DNA from: Candidatus Bathyarchaeota archaeon
GTDB lineage: Archaea > Thermoproteota > Bathyarchaeia > Bathyarchaeales > Bathyarchaeaceae
Assembly: GCA_963806645.1 (NCBI GenBank)
Contig: CAWDYQ010000002.1
Span: 200,050-264,049 of the forward strand
Length of the DNA stretch: 64,000 nt
Direction of reading: 5' to 3'
In this document: piece after piece, positions 18,878 through 25,506 of the stretch
Numbering within the stretch: position 1 is the first letter of the stretch
How the letters are laid out: each line of letters opens with the position of its first letter
Translations under genes and position numbers: made by a program
The notes under the pieces: generated by a model
The model's input: only the letters and a program-made list of their open reading frames with translations
What the model was told of the DNA's origin: nothing
Database searches by the model: none

Positions 18878-21148
18878 TTGCGTGCCGAAATATTGATCAG
18901 CGGCATAGTTCAGGGTGTTGGTTTTCGCCCATTCATTTATCGAATAGCCGTAAAAAATGGACTAGTAGGTTACGTAAGAAACAGGGGAGACGCCGTCGTT
19001 GAGATAGTTGTTGAAGGAAAAAAAGACAGCCTTACCCAGTTCTTTGAGAATTTAAAGAAACAAAAGCCACCGCTAGCGCAAATCTATAGCATAACCGTAG
19101 ATTATAAGAAAGATGAAAAGGGCTTCACCCAATTTAAGATTACAAGAAGCTCAGGCGAAACAGAACTTGCAGGGTCTGTTATTCCTCCGGATGTTTCGAT
19201 TTGCGGTGAATGTTTAAGGGAGTTGCGAGACCTAGAAAATAGGCGCTTCGACCACTTTTTCATAACCTGCACGGACTGCGGTCCAAGATACACCATAATA
19301 AATGGGCTTCCTTATGACCGACCGAACACGACAATGAAAGAGTTTCCAATGTGCAACGTCTGTGCTAAAGAATATATCGACCCCGCGAACCGAAGATTCC
19401 ATGCTCAGACAGTGGCTTGCCCAGATTGTGGGCCAAAAGTTAGTCTAGCATCCAGCACTGGGGATTTGATAGCGTCTGAAGACCCAATAAGGGAGGCGGG
19501 GCGCCTCCTAGAAGAAGGCAAGATTTTAGCGATTAAAGGTAATGGGGGCTTCCATGTTGCCACAGCCACAACTAAGACAGAACCTTTGGCTAGACTACGA
19601 AACGGTAAACATAGAAAACAGAAGCCCTTTGCAATAATGGCTTCAAACCTAGAAACTGTAAGGTCCTTTGCTGAAGTAAACCCTAGCGAAGCCGAATTGC
19701 TGACTTCATACCGTAAACCCATTATTCTGCTAAATAAAAGCGACGACTATTATCTTTCGGAACTGGTTTCTCCTGAACTTCACAGCATAGGAGTTATGCT
19801 ACCATACACTGGACTGCATGCAATGCTCTTCGATGAGGTTAAGGAACCTGCGTTTGTTATGACCAGCGCAAACCCACCCAGCGAACCTATAGTTACAGAC
19901 AACACCGAAGCAATAACCAAGTTGGGCCATATAGTTGACTATTTTCTATTCCATAACAGATCCATAGCCCAGCGATGTGACGATTCAGTTGTTCGCTTCC
20001 ACTACAAAAATCCATGTCTGATTCGGCGATCAAGAGGATACGCTCCTGAGCCAATTCAGTTGAAACAATTTTCTGACCGTTGTGTATTAGCGGTTGGCGG
20101 AGAACTTAACGTCACATCCTCCATGCTAATAGGGAATAGGGTATTCATTTCTCAGCATATTGGAGACGTAGAGAACCTGGAGAACCTCCACTTTCTAAAA
20201 GACACCATAGCTCACTTGATAAACTTGACTAACTGCAAAGTTGATGCGGTAGCTTGTGATCTTCATCCCAGATTCACCACTACAAAATTGGCTCAATCCA
20301 TAGGAAACAGGTTAGGCTGCCCGGTCGTCAGGGTTCAACACCATAACGCTCATGCTGCAGCCTTAATGGCAGAATGGAACGTTCCAGAGATTATTGTTAT
20401 AACATGTGACGGCTATGGTTATGGTTCTGACGGATCTGCATGGGGAGGCGAAGTTCTTTATACCAACAACGAAGGCTACAAAAGAGTAGCTCATCTTGAG
20501 AATCAACCCATGGTTGGGGGAGATCAAGCCACATATTACCCTCTGAGAATGGCTGCAGGAATACTCCAAAAAAAGGTGGATGCATCACAATGGTTGCTTT
20601 CTAAGAGTAACCATCTTCCTTATGGTAGAAAGGAAGCTGAATTGATAGCTAAGCAACTGGAAAAGGGATCTATAGTTGAGACAACTAGTTGTGGTAGAGT
20701 GTTGGATGCGATTTCAGCCATATTGGGAATATGTTATCAACGAACTTACGAAGGGGAGCCGGCAATGAAGCTGGAGTCCATAGCGATTAAAGGAAAAGAC
20801 AAAATGAACTTACCACCCAGAATTGATAGAAATATTTTAGATACTACGTTTCTTATTAACGAAATATTCGCAAACAAAAACAAGGTTTCTGTGGAGGATT
20901 TAGCCTGTTCAACCCAATCCTACTTGGCTAGGGGATTAGCTCAGATGGCTATAGAAGAGGCTATGCGGTTACAAGTCAATCAAATCGGTTTTTCTGGTGG
21001 AGTAGCATATAATAGGTATATTACAGCAGAAATCCGAAAAGCGGTAGAAAAAGAGGGTTTCAAGTTCCTTTTCCATAATAAAATCCCAGCAGGAGACGGC
21101 GGAACCTCTTTTGGACAAGCGATTGTTGCAGGTTTCCAAAAAAATTGA
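18878..21148 (+). CDS. hypF: Carbamoyltransferase HypF
   Basis: Acylphosphatase VQGVGFRPF, two zinc fingers, YrdC-like SQHIGD region, DLHP, QHHNAH and DGGTSFGQ. Confidence 0.97.
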   Translation: MRAEILISGIVQGVGFRPFIYRIAVKNGLVGYVRNRGDAVVEIVVEGKKDSLTQFFENLKKQKPPLAQIYSITVDYKKDEKGFTQFKITRSSGETELAGSVIPPDVSICGECLRELRDLENRRFDHFFITCTDCGPRYTIINGLPYDRPNTTMKEFPMCNVCAKEYIDPANRRFHAQTVACPDCGPKVSLASSTGDLIASEDPIREAGRLLEEGKILAIKGNGGFHVATATTKTEPLARLRNGKHRKQKPFAIMASNLETVRSFAEVNPSEAELLTSYRKPIILLNKSDDYYLSELVSPELHSIGVMLPYTGLHAMLFDEVKEPAFVMTSANPPSEPIVTDNTEAITKLGHIVDYFLFHNRSIAQRCDDSVVRFHYKNPCLIRRSRGYAPEPIQLKQFSDRCVLAVGGELNVTSSMLIGNRVFISQHIGDVENLENLHFLKDTIAHLINLTNCKVDAVACDLHPRFTTTKLAQSIGNRLGCPVVRVQHHNAHAAALMAEWNVPEIIVITCDGYGYGSDGSAWGGEVLYTNNEGYKRVAHLENQPMVGGDQATYYPLRMAAGILQKKVDASQWLLSKSNHLPYGRKEAELIAKQLEKGSIVETTSCGRVLDAISAILGICYQRTYEGEPAMKLESIAIKGKDKMNLPPRIDRNILDTTFLINEIFANKNKVSVEDLACSTQSYLARGLAQMAIEEAMRLQVNQIGFSGGVAYNRYITAEIRKAVEKEGFKFLFHNKIPAGDGGTSFGQAIVAGFQKN

Positions 21149-21634: not shown

Positions 21635-22312
21635 TTGGCTAACACAAAAGATGTGATAAAAGGCGAAAAAGTGACCCTCAAAATAGAACCCGGAATTAAC
21701 ATTCTGCAAGTTAACAAACAGCTTGCACAAAAAAACATTGAACTTCTACGAAAAACTAACGTTAAAGCTATTGATATCATGGGTTCTATAGGGGCAGGAA
21801 AAACCAGTCTAATCGAAAAACTTGTCCAAAAACTCAAAAAGAAATACAGAATAGCCGTTTTCAAAGGTGACTTAACCACAACTATTGATGCCGAACGAAT
21901 CGGACGCCACGGAGTTCAGGTAGTCACAATCAACACTGGTCGAGAATGCCACTTGGATGCTAATGTTGTTGCGCGAGCTATAGAAAGAATCAACCTAAAG
22001 GAAATTGACCTATTAATTATAGAGAATGTTGGCAACCTAATCTGCCCCGCAGAGTTTCCGTTGGGGACAGATAAGCGGATTGTTGTAGTAAGCGTAACTG
22101 AGGGGCCATACATGATAATTAAGCATCCTTTCACATTCATGAATGCAGATGTAATGGTAATTAACAAGAAGGACCTAGCCGAAACAATGAAGATAGACAC
22201 ACGAAAACTGGAAAAACAGGCTATTCAAATAAAGCCAGACCTTAAGGTTGCGATCACCAATGCTCTTACAGGAGAGGGCGTTGAAGAATTGATCAAGGCA
22301 ATGGAACTGTAG
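21635..22312 (+). CDS. hypB: Hydrogenase nickel-incorporation GTPase HypB
   Basis: GAGKTS, ECHLDA, ENVGNLICPA and NKKD motifs. Confidence 0.96.
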   Translation: MANTKDVIKGEKVTLKIEPGINILQVNKQLAQKNIELLRKTNVKAIDIMGSIGAGKTSLIEKLVQKLKKKYRIAVFKGDLTTTIDAERIGRHGVQVVTINTGRECHLDANVVARAIERINLKEIDLLIIENVGNLICPAEFPLGTDKRIVVVSVTEGPYMIIKHPFTFMNADVMVINKKDLAETMKIDTRKLEKQAIQIKPDLKVAITNALTGEGVEELIKAMEL

Positions 22313-22332: not shown

Positions 22333-22719
22333 TTGCATGAGCTTTCTATGACCACACAAATAATCGAAGCCGTTTTGGAAGAAGCAAAGAGACACGGAGC
22401 AAAGAAGGTCACAGAAGTTCAGATGAGTATAGGGAAAATGACATTCCTGGGTACTGAGCAAGTTCGCTTCTCTTACAAAATATTAACCGAAGACACCATC
22501 ATGAAAGACTCAAAACTGATCATCGAAGAGAAAGACGGCGTCATACATTGCACCAATTGCGGATATAAAGGAGAAGTGCCACTCAAAGACGACCCTGCAT
22601 ACCATATTCCAGTTCCCACTCTTCAGTGCCCTAAATGCGGAAACACAGCTAAAATCGTCGAAGGCAAAGAATGCACAATAAAGAGCATTCGAATGATCAA
22701 AAAAGAGGAAGAAAAGTGA
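22333..22719 (+). CDS. hypA: Hydrogenase nickel metallochaperone HypA
   Basis: MHELS start; CTNC and CPKC zinc site. Confidence 0.96.
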   Translation: MHELSMTTQIIEAVLEEAKRHGAKKVTEVQMSIGKMTFLGTEQVRFSYKILTEDTIMKDSKLIIEEKDGVIHCTNCGYKGEVPLKDDPAYHIPVPTLQCPKCGNTAKIVEGKECTIKSIRMIKKEEEK

Positions 22720-23816
22720 AACAAAACACTGACAATTTCAGAGACCCAGACTTAGCTAAGAAAGTAGCAGATCACATCAGAAAGATAGCTCCAGACTATG
22801 AAACAAAGTTTTGTCACGTCTGCGGAACTCATGAGTGGACAATAACCCATTATGGAATCCGTTCGCTTCTTCCAGAAAACGTAGATGTTATCGCCGGACC
22901 AGGATGCCCAGTTTGTATCCTTCCGGCAGCCGAAATTGACGAAGCAATAGAGTTGGCACAAAAGGGAGTGACAGTTGCAACATTCGGTGACCTCGTTCGC
23001 GTGCCTGGCTCAAAAACTTCTCTTCAGGAAACCAAAGCGTCTGGTGGAGACGTCCGAATTGTGTATAGCCCAAGAGATGCCATTAAAATGGCTCAAAAGA
23101 ATCCAGATAGAGAGTTTGTGTTTTTTGCGGTCGGCTTCGAAACTACCTCTCCGACAACTGCCATCGAAGTTTTAGGTAAACCTCCTAGTAACTTCAGTTT
23201 TCTTGTTTCTCATAGACTCATTCCTCCTGCGATGGAGCTACTTTTAGGTATTGGAGACTTACATATTGACGGGTTTATTGCTGCTGGTCATGTTTCAACA
23301 ATTATAGGAATGAAACCTTACGAAGTATTTCCCAAAGCGTATAGGATGCCTACAGTTGCTGCTGGGTTTGAGCCCCTGGATGTTCTCTTTGCCGTGGATA
23401 TGCTGTTGCAACAGGTAAGGGAGGGCGTAGCTAGACTAGAGAATGAGTACAGTCGGGTTGTTTCGTGGGAGGGAAATATTAGGGCCCAGAGGCTGGTAGA
23501 ACAGGTGTTTAAGGTGGTAGAAGGAAGGTGGCGGGGATTGGGAAAGCTTCCTTATTCAGCTTTGGAGCTAAAGAAGGAGTTCGAAGCATATGATGCACGG
23601 AAAAAATATGACTTGCATATAGTGGAAGCTGTGGATATTCTGAAGGGTTGTCTATGCCACCTAGTAATGATTGGAAAGATTAAACCATCTGAATGCCCTA
23701 GTTATTTGACTAGTTGTGTTCCAGAATCTCCGAAGGGAGCCTGCATGGTCTCGAATGAGGGTACATGTAGAATCTGGGCTAAACATCGAGTACCCAAGTT
23801 TAGCACGCGCAACTAA
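22716..23816 (+). CDS. hypD: Hydrogenase maturation protein HypD
   Basis: HVCGTH, GPGCPVC, GFETT and GACMVSNEGTC motifs; GTG overlaps the hypA TGA. Confidence 0.97.
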   Translation: MKQNTDNFRDPDLAKKVADHIRKIAPDYETKFCHVCGTHEWTITHYGIRSLLPENVDVIAGPGCPVCILPAAEIDEAIELAQKGVTVATFGDLVRVPGSKTSLQETKASGGDVRIVYSPRDAIKMAQKNPDREFVFFAVGFETTSPTTAIEVLGKPPSNFSFLVSHRLIPPAMELLLGIGDLHIDGFIAAGHVSTIIGMKPYEVFPKAYRMPTVAAGFEPLDVLFAVDMLLQQVREGVARLENEYSRVVSWEGNIRAQRLVEQVFKVVEGRWRGLGKLPYSALELKKEFEAYDARKKYDLHIVEAVDILKGCLCHLVMIGKIKPSECPSYLTSCVPESPKGACMVSNEGTCRIWAKHRVPKFSTRN

Positions 23817-24019
23817 AATTATACCCCAAACCCAAACATTCCTTTTCATATTTCTCTTTGCAGTTCTATTTCAATTAGTTCTCTTCACTATTCTTAATTC
23901 TACGTACGCACACCGAGAGGTTAATTTAAATGACCGAATGAAGTTGGGTTCGAGAAATTTTGGCAGAAATCTATGTGACAATCAATTAAAATAAAGAGAT
24001 GTTTGTGGTACATAGAAAT

Positions 24020-24251
24020 CCCGAGTTGAGTCTAAGCCCTTAGTGTATGTTAGGCCCGATATGGACATCGTTTTGCGCGTGCGTTTCTCGTTCAGCCTTT
24101 TTGATAGACGCACCCGATGCCTATACGCATTTCACTTTAGGTATTGACCAGCCCTTCGAAGCAAAGTGTTTAGCGCATACCAGCCGTCAGCCGTTTTGAC
24201 TGGTACACTCGATGCTTCAATGCAACACCAGAGCGTGCTCCCCAACTCGGG
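24020..24251 (-). ncRNA. Candidate multi-helix structured RNA of unknown class (232 nt)
   Basis: 11-bp closing helix, two long arms and twin apical hairpins; GC-richer than flanks; TATA-like about 30 nt upstream on the minus strand; no convincing ORF. Confidence 0.65.
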
Positions 24252-24459
24252 TAATATATTATACAGATATAGTGTAAGATATAGTTTGTCGAAGACGGGA
24301 CATCATAATAAAGGTGGGCGTACGAAATATTTTAACACATTTTTGTTAAAAAAATAAGTGATAAACCTGCAAAGTCATCAATTAGGTAAGTGAAGGCTCG
24401 ATTATAGGGGTATAAAAAAATAATTGTGGTATATATTTACAATTTGGACGATTTTTTTA

Positions 24460-25506
24460 TTAACAGATTCTTGGAACGGGATCTCCAACTGGAGGCGCCA
24501 TAATACGTTTTCCACCAACTATAGTCTCAAGAACTACCTCGCTGAAGTCGCATGTTGCTTCTCCGATTATCTGAGCGTTTTTACCGTATTTTGTATCTCT
24601 TAAAGCGGATAGTACTTCTTCAGCCTTCTGCGGTACAACTCCAATCAGCACTTTACCCTCGTTTCCAATCTCCATGGGATCTAAACCAAGCATCTCGCAT
24701 GCAGCCTTCACGTCACCTCGCAGAGGTACCTTCGATTCATGCACCATCAAACCAACATTAGACTTCACGCTCCATTCATTCAACGAATTAGACAAGCCTC
24801 CACGTGTTGGGTCTTTCATGGCGACGATCCCACCAACCTCCAACAATTTCTTGACTGTTTTATTCAGCGGAGCCACGTCAGATTTAATGTTGCTTCCAAA
24901 ATCGTAGCCCTCCTGAGCAGACAGGATGGTCACTCCATGATCTCCAACCGTGCCAGAAATGATAAGTTTGTCTCCCTCTTGGAGATTAGAATCTAAAATC
25001 CAACGGGCATTAAACGAACGATACTTCTTAATTTCATCAATGTTAGTTTCTAACGCCTCGCCTCTTTTTCCTATCCCAGATGTGTTGATTATGCAACCTC
25101 CAAAACCGCTCTTCTCAATAACTTTTGTATCCCCCGTCACAACATATATTCCAGCTTCTTTGCAGGCAATTTCCATGCTCTCTAATATTCTGTCTAAATC
25201 GGCTAACAGGAGTCCTTCCTCCAATACCATACCGCAGGTGAGAGCCAACGGTTCAGCACCGATCATTGCAATATCGTTTACTGTACCTGCCACAGCCAAC
25301 CGTCCAATGTCACCGCCTGGAAAAAACAGTGGCTTTACTGCATGAGAATCCGATTTCAAAACAATATTATCTACAACTGCGGAATCGTCTAATGCCTCTA
25401 GAGGAATCTCAGCGCTACTTCCTCCAAGATACTTTAGCACGTGGTTTTTGATTAGGTCACTCATAATGGTTCCGCCGGCTCCATGAGCCATAGTTACTCG
25501 ATCCAT
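24460..25506 (-). CDS. hypE: Carbamoyl dehydratase HypE
   Basis: MAHGAGG, FFPGGDIG, GDTKV, KDPTRGG and C-terminal PRIC. Confidence 0.97.
   Translation of the reverse strand: MDRVTMAHGAGGTIMSDLIKNHVLKYLGGSSAEIPLEALDDSAVVDNIVLKSDSHAVKPLFFPGGDIGRLAVAGTVNDIAMIGAEPLALTCGMVLEEGLLLADLDRILESMEIACKEAGIYVVTGDTKVIEKSGFGGCIINTSGIGKRGEALETNIDEIKKYRSFNARWILDSNLQEGDKLIISGTVGDHGVTILSAQEGYDFGSNIKSDVAPLNKTVKKLLEVGGIVAMKDPTRGGLSNSLNEWSVKSNVGLMVHESKVPLRGDVKAACEMLGLDPMEIGNEGKVLIGVVPQKAEEVLSALRDTKYGKNAQIIGEATCDFSEVVLETIVGGKRIMAPPVGDPVPRIC

Follow-up and report, generated by a model that had tools for sequence, protein, structure and literature searches.

A free-standing gene for a probably circular, pseudoknotted non-coding RNA in Bathyarchaeia archaea

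What is encoded by the structured element that lies between the convergent genes hypD and hypE in a genome of Candidatus Bathyarchaeota archaeon? The window, the whole stretch of DNA analysed here, comprises 64,000 nucleotides (nt) of contig CAWDYQ010000002.1 (assembly GCA_963806645.1, positions 200,050 to 264,049), and an initial annotation made from its letters had described a 232-nt multi-helix RNA candidate on the minus strand as an independently transcribed non-coding RNA (ncRNA) gene of a class that it did not recognise. The element is present at the coordinates claimed, on the minus strand and with the sequence as written, and its description as an ncRNA gene of an unrecognised class has held up, given a conserved promoter, RNA-only contigs in three of four RNA runs, covarying homologues and no Rfam match. 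It is most probably a free-standing gene for a stable circular ncRNA with a two-module pseudoknotted fold, a reading to which we assign a probability of about 0.78, this figure covering the gene, its processing and its fold.

According to this reading, transcription from the element's own promoter would yield a 232-nt precursor, the ends of which would pair as an 11-bp helix followed by a bulge-helix-bulge. The splicing endonuclease would cut both bulges after the second nucleotide, the resulting 17-nt and 12-nt ‘exons’ would be discarded, and RtcB would ligate the excised piece into a 203-nt circle consisting of two homologous modules. In each module a hinge would fold the structure back, and four loop bases would pair with four bulge bases. 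Such a circle could then serve as an exonuclease-resistant RNA subunit or regulator in a particle with n1, a protein encoded beside the RNA in many relatives, with one module per binding unit.

The foundation of this proposal is the secondary structure. When both strands were folded against shuffled controls, as the initial annotation had recommended, the minus strand gave the stronger signal, with a minimum free energy of -78.3 kcal/mol (z = -3.0; 1/200 shuffles as good) versus -66.4 kcal/mol for the plus strand (z = -1.8; 10/200 shuffles as good). The structure was refined by hand on 24 genus-level homologues, in which 98.8% of the cells are paired and 15 pairs are changed on both sides, against 3.1 ± 1.4 in shuffled alignments (0/500) and 2–5 in slid controls. 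An independent set of 85 matches (68 distinct) from metagenomes and named genomes behaves in the same manner, with 95.6% of cells paired and 50/63 pairs changed on both sides, against 30.3 in shuffled alignments (0/500) and 12–23 in slid controls. Most helices that had been drawn by eye are retained: GGUGUUG/CAAUACC and the arm 1 stem UUGAAGC/GCUUCGA are supported by covariation in both homologue sets, as are, by covariation, the arm 1 inner stem GUGUACCA(GUC)/(GGC)UGGUAUGC and the arm 2 stems CAUCG/CGAUG and GUGCG/CGCAC. Two others had to be given up. GUCA/UGAC finds no support and is replaced by the inner-stem extension AGUC/GGCU (pairs 55-58/71-74 of the 24-homologue alignment), while CGCU/AGUG conflicts with both the bulge-helix-bulge motif and the outer stem of module 2, in which A126-U216 is a compensatory change.

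The ends of the RNA carry the processing signal. As defined in PMC7714728, the bulge-helix-bulge consists of a 4-bp central helix with two 3-nt bulges on opposite strands, and in the window GAGC/GCUU with the bulges ACG and AGA, followed by at least two more pairs, forms exactly such a 3-4-3 motif. A geometry search blind to sequence found the central helix (H) paired 4/4 in 124 of 129 family members, with the inner pairs 2/2 as well in 117; bulge 1 reads ANG (ACG in 69, AGG in 25, AAG in 18 and AUG in 12), and bulge 2 is AGA in 116 of the 129. The motif also calls for outer helices of 2 bp or more; h is the terminal helix P1 of 11–12 bp, and h′ is 2/2 in 117/129 members. Both parts of the signal had been proposed earlier: the closing helix CCCGAGUUGGG/CUCAACUCGGG is kept by covariation, all 12/12 of its pairs changing on both sides in the 68-distinct set, and GAGC/GCUU is likewise supported by covariation (98.8% of cells paired in the same set). 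Terminal helix and GAGC/GCUU together are thus a canonical bulge-helix-bulge processing signal. In the same genome the intron of tRNA-Lys(UUU), used as a phase control, has the same 3-4-3 motif and is cut after the second bulge base. The genome encodes the endonuclease EndA twice (96.5 and 77.4 bits) and the ligase RtcB (576 bits), and by analogy with tRNA introns the tRNA-splicing endonuclease would cut the precursor and RtcB would join the product. As to tRNA introns more generally, ARAGORN predicts 13 intron-bearing tRNA genes in this genome, listed from contigs outside the window; several have introns at non-canonical positions, and two introns are very long, that of tRNA-Ile with 135 nt and that of tRNA-Gln with 546 nt.

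RNA libraries bear on both expression and circularity. In 13 RNA runs from 9 studies, the portion of a 1-kb stretch around the locus that is represented is roughly as long as the RNA, and four of them (X1, X6, X14 and X19), each from a different study and all in the form of assembled contigs, were mapped. In X6, X14 and X19, depth is confined to bins spanning 24006-24243, with peaks of 982, 228 and 321, respectively, and neither hypD and hypE nor the two spacers have any. A back-joint from 24234 to 24032 (‘goes back 203’) occurs in contigs of X14 and X19; the X19 joint lies within a 232-nt contig, its shorter side being 101 nt, and the whole 203-nt cycle is assembled. The loose ends that X6 and X14 show at 24028 are identical to plus-strand 24214-24230 and, read as the circle junction, are one letter off the linear reading. 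The junction is common to runs of three studies, and its position is unambiguous (‘both’ = 0). It implies cuts at RNA 17|18 and 220|221, after the second base of each bulge, and hence a mature product that is a 203-nt circle. As to the discrete transcript of about 230 nt that the initial annotation had suggested looking for, cover restricted to the RNA is seen in three of four runs, the junction gives a 203-nt circle, and the contigs are strandless.

Several points weigh against this reading. The evidence for the circle consists of assembled contigs, not raw reads, and carries no strand, ends or proportions; X1 has lower depth, weak flank cover and a linear contig from 24015 to 24241; and the roles of the two enzymes are derived from motif geometry only. 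It might accordingly be supposed that the RNA is an ordinary linear small RNA and that the back-joined contigs are artefacts of template switching or graph assembly. The data being contigs only and the linear X1 contig agree with that supposition, as does an X6 contig that terminates at 24019 against sequencing-adapter letters, which means that linear ends exist. However, one and the same junction occurs in three studies, exactly at the sites that the bulge-helix-bulge predicts, X19 contains the whole 203-nt cycle as one contig at a depth of 144, and conservation of the motif in 124/129 members would be unexplained if the RNA stayed linear. A purely linear RNA is for these reasons considered very unlikely. 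Across members, the predicted circles measure about 106–111, 136 and 192–205 nt. In the circle, the junction could close a small hairpin, AGGGC-UUAG-GCUCU, which extends to a 13–14-bp helix in one-module members, an extension that explains why this alternative pairing first looked good.

The interior of the circle is made of two modules of common design. Arm 2 is a duplicate of arm 1, for in distant two-module members module 2 repeats module 1 in full. Each module runs through an outer stem, a bulge of 7 nt (3′ strand, GGYYRRN), a middle stem, a hinge (5′ strand GA, 3′ strand G-N3-AAGAC), an inner stem and a loop of 12–13 nt with the pattern RAAAC-RGY-GAAR. The four loop bases past the A-run pair with bulge bases 3–6 of the same module. 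In 25 diverse RNAs, pseudoknot 1 and pseudoknot 2 each have 4/4 pairs changed on both sides; for both together 98% of cells are paired and 8/8 pairs covary, against 3.6 in shuffled alignments (0/500) and at most 1 in slid controls, and pseudoknot 1 reaches 99.6% of cells paired in the 68-distinct set. The loop/bulge covariants include CAAC/GUUG, UGGC/GCCA, CGGU/ACCG and AGAC/GUCU. Three other pairings were considered and abandoned. Loop-bulge pairing across modules fails where the modules differ, such as in L082 (CAGC vs ACCG); the RNAalifold pairing GGGCCU/GGGCUU was dropped in favour of the loop-bulge pseudoknot; and the reading of the apical loop as a kissing palindrome complementary to itself (CRGCUG) was dropped because the variants CAGCGAAA and CGGUGAAA lose the palindrome yet keep the bulge pairing.

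Pairing of the loop and the bulge inside one molecule requires the inner stem to be folded back at the hinge so as to lie along the middle stem, and these two stems are of similar length. We infer that each module is bent by its hinge through about 180 degrees, letting the loop reach the bulge; on the opposing side, the contact could equally form between two molecules. RNA domains that fold back on themselves and are locked by a distal contact are represented by P4-P6 of the group I intron and by the pseudoknot of the SAM-I riboswitch, which depends on a kink-turn (K-turn). Like these, the present modules place helices side by side via a sharp hinge with an apical loop touching a basal element, but they show no relation in sequence or family, their contact consists of 4 bp of Watson-Crick type, and their hinge, read against the sequences, does not seem to fit the K-turn consensus. 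That consensus comprises a bulge of 3 nt and, next to it, tandem G.A/A.G pairs, set between one canonical and one non-canonical helix; the hinge, with GA in its 5′ strand and G...AAGAC in its 3′ strand, appears to be out of register with it. The unpaired bases of the modules are purine-rich and invariant, and no variable guide-like single strand is evident, since all unpaired segments are conserved.

Whether the RNA could be a known one in disguise was addressed from several directions. At gathering thresholds, Rfam recovers from the whole window two tRNAs only, and even at E <= 10 over 23850-24450 it returns only two chance rows for small nucleolar RNA (snoRNA), both in the AT-rich flank. RNase P RNA (220 bits), signal recognition particle (SRP) RNA (163 bits) and 5S rRNA (72 bits) were all located elsewhere in the genome in canonical form, and identity with any of them is ruled out on that ground. 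The initial annotation had found no features of RNase P, SRP, tRNA or 5S in the element and had proposed an Rfam search, and both the search, which matched no family, and the positions of these genes bear it out. The C box RUGAUGA of C/D-box small RNAs (sRNAs) occurs in 2/131 distinct members and is absent from the window RNA, while CUGA, the D box sequence, is present in 120/131 members but sited in the apical loop rather than near the ends, so that a C/D-box sRNA was rejected. An H/ACA sRNA would have a hairpin with a pseudouridylation pocket and, 3′ of the lower stem, an ACA box; ACA does fall within the hinge (GACAAAGAC in most members), although the stems, judged by eye on the covarying helices and by Rfam as the only model check, show no two-sided pocket. 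There is precedent for permuted genes restored via a bulge-helix-bulge (PMC4731332), and the element might accordingly be a known RNA (SRP, RNase P or a guide of the C/D or H/ACA type) that is circularly permuted or has diverged strongly and would be restored by circularisation. The canonical SRP, RNase P and 5S genes, Rfam at E <= 10 without even partial matches, the near absence of the C box and the lack of a pseudouridylation pocket on reading the helices render this highly improbable.

Coding and mobile elements were examined as well. Read as a rolling-circle open reading frame (ORF), the circle has a longest stop-free run of 54–58 aa across four laps, and this candidate was discarded. The element is single-copy in its own genome (1.69 Mb, 7 contigs, 92% complete), with neither repeats nor target-site duplications; a 16-nt match at G000:C2:130329 lies inside a protein ORF and is due to chance. 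A miniature mobile element, of which the initial annotation had warned, was looked for and rejected, for there is one copy here without target-site duplications, and relatives have 1–5 diverged copies, each with its own promoter.

The gene is compact and sharply bounded. The GC content is 0.47–0.54 in the element against 0.29–0.36 in the AT-rich spacers on either side, and in an alignment of the 24 homologues with their flanks both borders are the ends of conservation; a covariance model matches 24019-24252 with 257 bits. The TATA-like sequence AAACTATATC that had been pointed out upstream is indeed there and conserved, as a block CGACAAACTATATCTTCC about 30 nt upstream that is kept in nearly all 24 homologues. 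This conserved TATA box marks what is, as judged from the DNA, an archaeal promoter of the RNA's own. The T-rich downstream sequence also noted earlier is present and conserved, with TTTCTATGTAC/TTTCATTTTC directly 3′ of the terminal helix kept in homologues, and is likely the termination region. Farther upstream, about 80–100 nt from the RNA, most genus homologues have TTGACA-N7-TGTCAA at the position of the palindrome TTTAACAAAAATGTGTTAAA, which may be a transcription-factor site; it was not seen upstream of the genes for RNase P RNA, SRP RNA, 5S rRNA or tRNAs in the same genome.

Because of its position, the element might instead be regarded as a cis element of the hyp genes, that is, the 3′ untranslated region (UTR) or terminator of hypE or an antisense regulator, or as a mobile repeat. 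The flanking ORFs encode HypD (22671-23816, plus strand, 466 bits) and an AIR-synthase-type HypE (24460-25506, minus strand), and the RNA shares the strand of hypE, from which it is separated by 208 nt on the downstream side, and is convergent with hypD. It has, however, a conserved TATA box of its own, with zero flank depth in three RNA runs; hypE and/or hypD lie within 1.5 kb at 18/24 genus loci, are missing at the other 6/24 and are found at no distant locus; and the single copy comes without duplications. We give this explanation scarcely any credence, and the hypD/hypE position is lineage-specific local synteny. A complete set of hydrogenase-maturation genes surrounds the RNA, with hypF (18878-21148), hypB (21635-22312) and hypA (22333-22719) upstream of hypD, and hypE on the opposite strand.

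The RNA family was found only in Bathyarchaeia archaea. With BLAST, matches of 78–90% identity were obtained for 22/24 genomes in the window's genus and for a single genus outside it. A covariance model built on 24 sequences (R1) finds the family in 74/151 sampled genomes of the order, distributed over family f11 (33/34), f5 (4/4), f1 (19/35) and f9 (13/35). A second model built on 25 diverse sequences (R2) finds it in 30/151 genomes of the class, where five additional families, belonging to other orders, are represented, and in 10/151 genomes of a phylum sample, all of them in the window's own order. The exact loop pattern occurs in 24 named genome records, every title of which reads Bathyarchaeota or Bathyarchaeia, and in 66 metagenome contigs; among the named records is the complete genome of Candidatus Bathyarchaeum tardum (locus L091). 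The 131 distinct members fall into 80 with two modules (~232 nt), 33 with one module (~137 nt) and 18 of ~165 nt, and the window's genus has 1–5 copies per genome.

The family is accompanied in many genomes by the protein n1 (~215 aa). No neighbour conserved across the order was apparent in the first 23 loci, and a pair of neighbours surfaced only with 120: n1 is divergently upstream of the RNA in 52/120 loci, at a median distance of 87 nt (e.g., L074:6603-7292 and L079:5341-5994), and an ATP-dependent DNA ligase is convergent downstream in 53/120. Among the same 151 genomes of the order, 70 have both RNA and n1, 4 the RNA only (the genome of the window included), 19 n1 only and 58 neither. 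A more sensitive search detected a diverged member of 163–173 nt beside n1 in 15/19 n1-only genomes; two further n1-only genomes looked at gave a short contig or nothing. In other orders, RNA and n1 are adjacent in 6/10 comparable cases, with 5 clear and 2 weak matches in 20 loci.

The protein itself belongs to no Pfam, NCBIfam or PADLOC family and gives only noise against PDB sequences. Its homologues number 3835, those with names being hypothetical proteins of Bathyarchaeia, and mean identity across 12 diverse members is 65%. An AlphaFold2 model (predicted local distance difference test, pLDDT, 88.1) aligns by VIA-align with 3dnx, 2okf, 1y88 and 2vld at Z of 9.7, 9.6, 9.1 and 7.8 over 95–113 residues; values below 8, such as the 7.8 for NucS, can be due to chance, and the top three lie above. 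The Foldseek list is dominated by the PD-(D/E)XK fold, with a best E of 7.6e-4. The model thus places n1 in the restriction-endonuclease-like PD-(D/E)XK fold, with a predicted alpha-beta-beta-beta-alpha-beta core. The invariant residues are D77, E90-V-E92, K82 and K115.

A functional bond between the two is opposed by a number of observations. The third signature position of n1 is E (E-V-E) where the nuclease signature has E-x-K. No n1 was found in the 92%-complete assembly of the window, and in the window's genus n1 is adjacent to the RNA at 0/2 loci. In family f24, n1 is present in 27/27 genomes and the RNA in 1/27, with none beside n1, from which either the RNA is too diverged there or n1 works without it; a generic motif scan upstream of n1 in f24 was set aside, as its matches were at chance level and the regions read as protein gene rather than RNA. 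Finally, the evidence for a link is a correlation among related genomes, which do not count as independent samples. That the circle acts as the RNA component or a regulator of an n1 particle is accordingly held to be possible rather than probable. The more specific notion of an as yet unknown Bathyarchaeia ribonucleoprotein, in which an enzyme of the restriction-endonuclease fold that acts on nucleic acids would have as its obligate partner a closed pseudoknotted RNA from an intron-only gene, be it as activator, specificity subunit or inhibitor, is advanced as a doubtful extension.

Two other roles may be considered for a circle that is real. It could be independent of n1, as a ligand-binding or catalytic RNA with tandem aptamer- or ribozyme-like modules. 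Compact pseudoknotted modules with invariant purine-rich unpaired bases would suit such a function, and so would an assembly with the RNA in which n1 was not found and a family, f24, with n1 and no detectable RNA. Since, on the other side, there is neither an expression platform nor a conserved downstream gene, no self-cleavage site is evident, the ends are explained by the bulge-helix-bulge, and 70/74 RNA-positive genomes of the order sample carry n1, independence seems unlikely. The RNA could also inhibit the n1 nuclease as an antitoxin would, on the model of type III toxin-antitoxin systems, or belong to a defence system, as a structured, modular, pseudoknotted RNA beside a nuclease-fold protein and with 1–5 copies per genome in the genus might suggest. 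This is judged quite unlikely: n1 is highly conserved, single-copy and syntenic with a DNA ligase, which is atypical of such genes; it has no PADLOC match; the loop pattern has 0 matches in viral contigs; and the RNA is divergent from n1 rather than an upstream tandem repeat array.

How does the proposed gene relate to known systems? The RNA resembles archaeal bulge-helix-bulge introns of tRNA and rRNA, including the intron in the 5′-UTR of HVO_1309 (PMC7714728, PMC12558985), in the 3-4-3 motif, the cuts after the second base and the circularised piece; unlike them, it has no host gene, its 17-nt and 12-nt ‘exons’ only form the processing helix, and the circle, with its own promoter, would be the conserved product. 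The circularised permuted SRP RNA of Thermoproteus (PMC4731332) is likewise a functional ncRNA matured by motif cleavage and circularisation, but it is a rearranged member of a universal family, whereas here no family is matched and a normal SRP gene is present. Metazoan tRNA-intronic circular RNAs (PMC6614914) and circular C/D-box sRNAs of Thermococcales (PMC9014305) are small, stable, enzyme-made circles as well, produced by tRNA-splicing or RNA-ligase enzymes; they derive from tRNA introns or have C/D boxes, unlike the present RNA, which has no tRNA and a C box in only 2/131 members. Viroid-like circular RNAs from metatranscriptomes (10.1101/2022.07.19.500677) share the small structured circle and its abundance in environmental RNA, yet the element described here is encoded chromosomally, at syntenic positions and behind a promoter, and has no ribozyme match. 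Circular rRNAs are described for uncultivated archaea including Bathyarchaeia (PMC12918454), the searched text of which does not mention ncRNAs. Searches of the full-text literature, supplements lying outside their scope, brought up neither this RNA nor any free-standing gene from which a circle is excised at a bulge-helix-bulge.

The RNA is a new family, in which a known pathway is used in a new way and a new fold is well supported, and n1 is a promising candidate partner. It would be the first case found of a free-standing gene whose sole conserved product is a bulge-helix-bulge-excised circle, and would extend the use of tRNA-splicing enzymes from intron removal to the manufacture of a stable RNA; if this is true, the tRNA-splicing machinery serves here purely as an RNA-circularisation device for a dedicated ‘intron-only’ gene. 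Bathyarchaeia are among the most abundant archaea of sediments, and to our knowledge almost nothing is known of their RNA biology. The lineage-specific RNA described here reaches contig depths in the hundreds in three RNA libraries in which its neighbour genes have no depth. Moreover, the covariation that supports the fold of hinge and loop-bulge pseudoknot is unusually clean, which makes it ready for structure determination, and the link to n1 offers a testable handle on two unknowns together, the RNA and a highly conserved nuclease-fold protein. The coordinates of all features are collected in Table 1.

Table 1. Features of the RNA gene, in positions of the window; RNA numbering starts at the first base of the terminal helix.
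Feature	Position	Strand	Basis or remark
Precursor RNA, 232 nt	24020..24251	-	Delimited by conservation and terminal helix
Mature circular RNA, 203 nt (RNA 18-220)	24032..24234	-	Contig back-joint
Helix h (P1), 5′ strand (RNA 1-11)	24241..24251	-	Predicted to be removed as ‘5′ exon’
Central helix H, 5′ strand GAGC (RNA 12-15)	24237..24240	-	
Bulge 1, ACG (RNA 16-18)	24234..24236	-	Cut between 24235 and 24234
Central helix H, 3′ strand GCUU (RNA 215-218)	24034..24037	-	
Bulge 2, AGA (RNA 219-221)	24031..24033	-	Cut between 24032 and 24031
Helix h (P1), 3′ strand (RNA 222-232)	24020..24030	-	Predicted to be removed as ‘3′ exon’
Module 1	24140..24229	-	Covariation, both homologue sets
Module 1, P3	24223-24229 with 24140-24146	-	
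Module 1, P4	24214-24220 with 24156-24162	-	
Module 1, P5	24198-24208 with 24175-24185	-	
Module 1, loop	24186-24197	-	
Module 1, A-rich hinge	24166-24174	-	
Module 1, bulge	24147-24154	-	
Pseudoknot 1	loop CGGC 24190..24193 with bulge GCUG 24149..24152	-	Covariation
Module 2	24043..24135	-	Covariation
Module 2, outer stem	24132-24135 with 24043-24046	-	
Module 2, mid stem	24115-24119 with 24066-24070	-	
Module 2, inner stem	24109-24113 with 24079-24083	-	
Module 2, loop	24084-24108	-	
Module 2, hinge	24071-24078	-	
Module 2, bulge	24050-24057	-	
Pseudoknot 2	loop AGGC 24095..24098 with bulge GCCU 24052..24055	-	Covariation
TATA-box-like AAACTATATC	24278..24287	-	~27-36 nt upstream of the terminal helix's first base; conserved block
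Palindrome TTTAACAAAAATGTGTTAAA	24331..24350	-	Sequence conservation; putative transcription-factor site
T-rich 3′ flank ATTTCTATGTACC...	23996..24019	-	Candidate termination region

Further observations concern relatives of the RNA. The ~165-nt class (L030:1504-1670, L031:1355-1521 and L085:4774-4940) has the same processing motif with a different interior and a predicted circle of 136 nt; it is frequent in genomes of the window's genus and was not found in the genome of the window. Upstream of a ~165-nt paralogue lies a direct repeat, TGTCAAAAA-N3-TGTCAAAAA, which is related to the palindrome. One relative contains near-identical one-module copies, L066:4443-4581 and L066:14655-14792, inverted and 10 kb apart. 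A virus between these inverted copies was considered and rejected, as they flank instead a cluster of sugar-nucleotide and glycan genes including rhamnose-pathway-like enzymes and a UDP-GlcNAc 2-epimerase.

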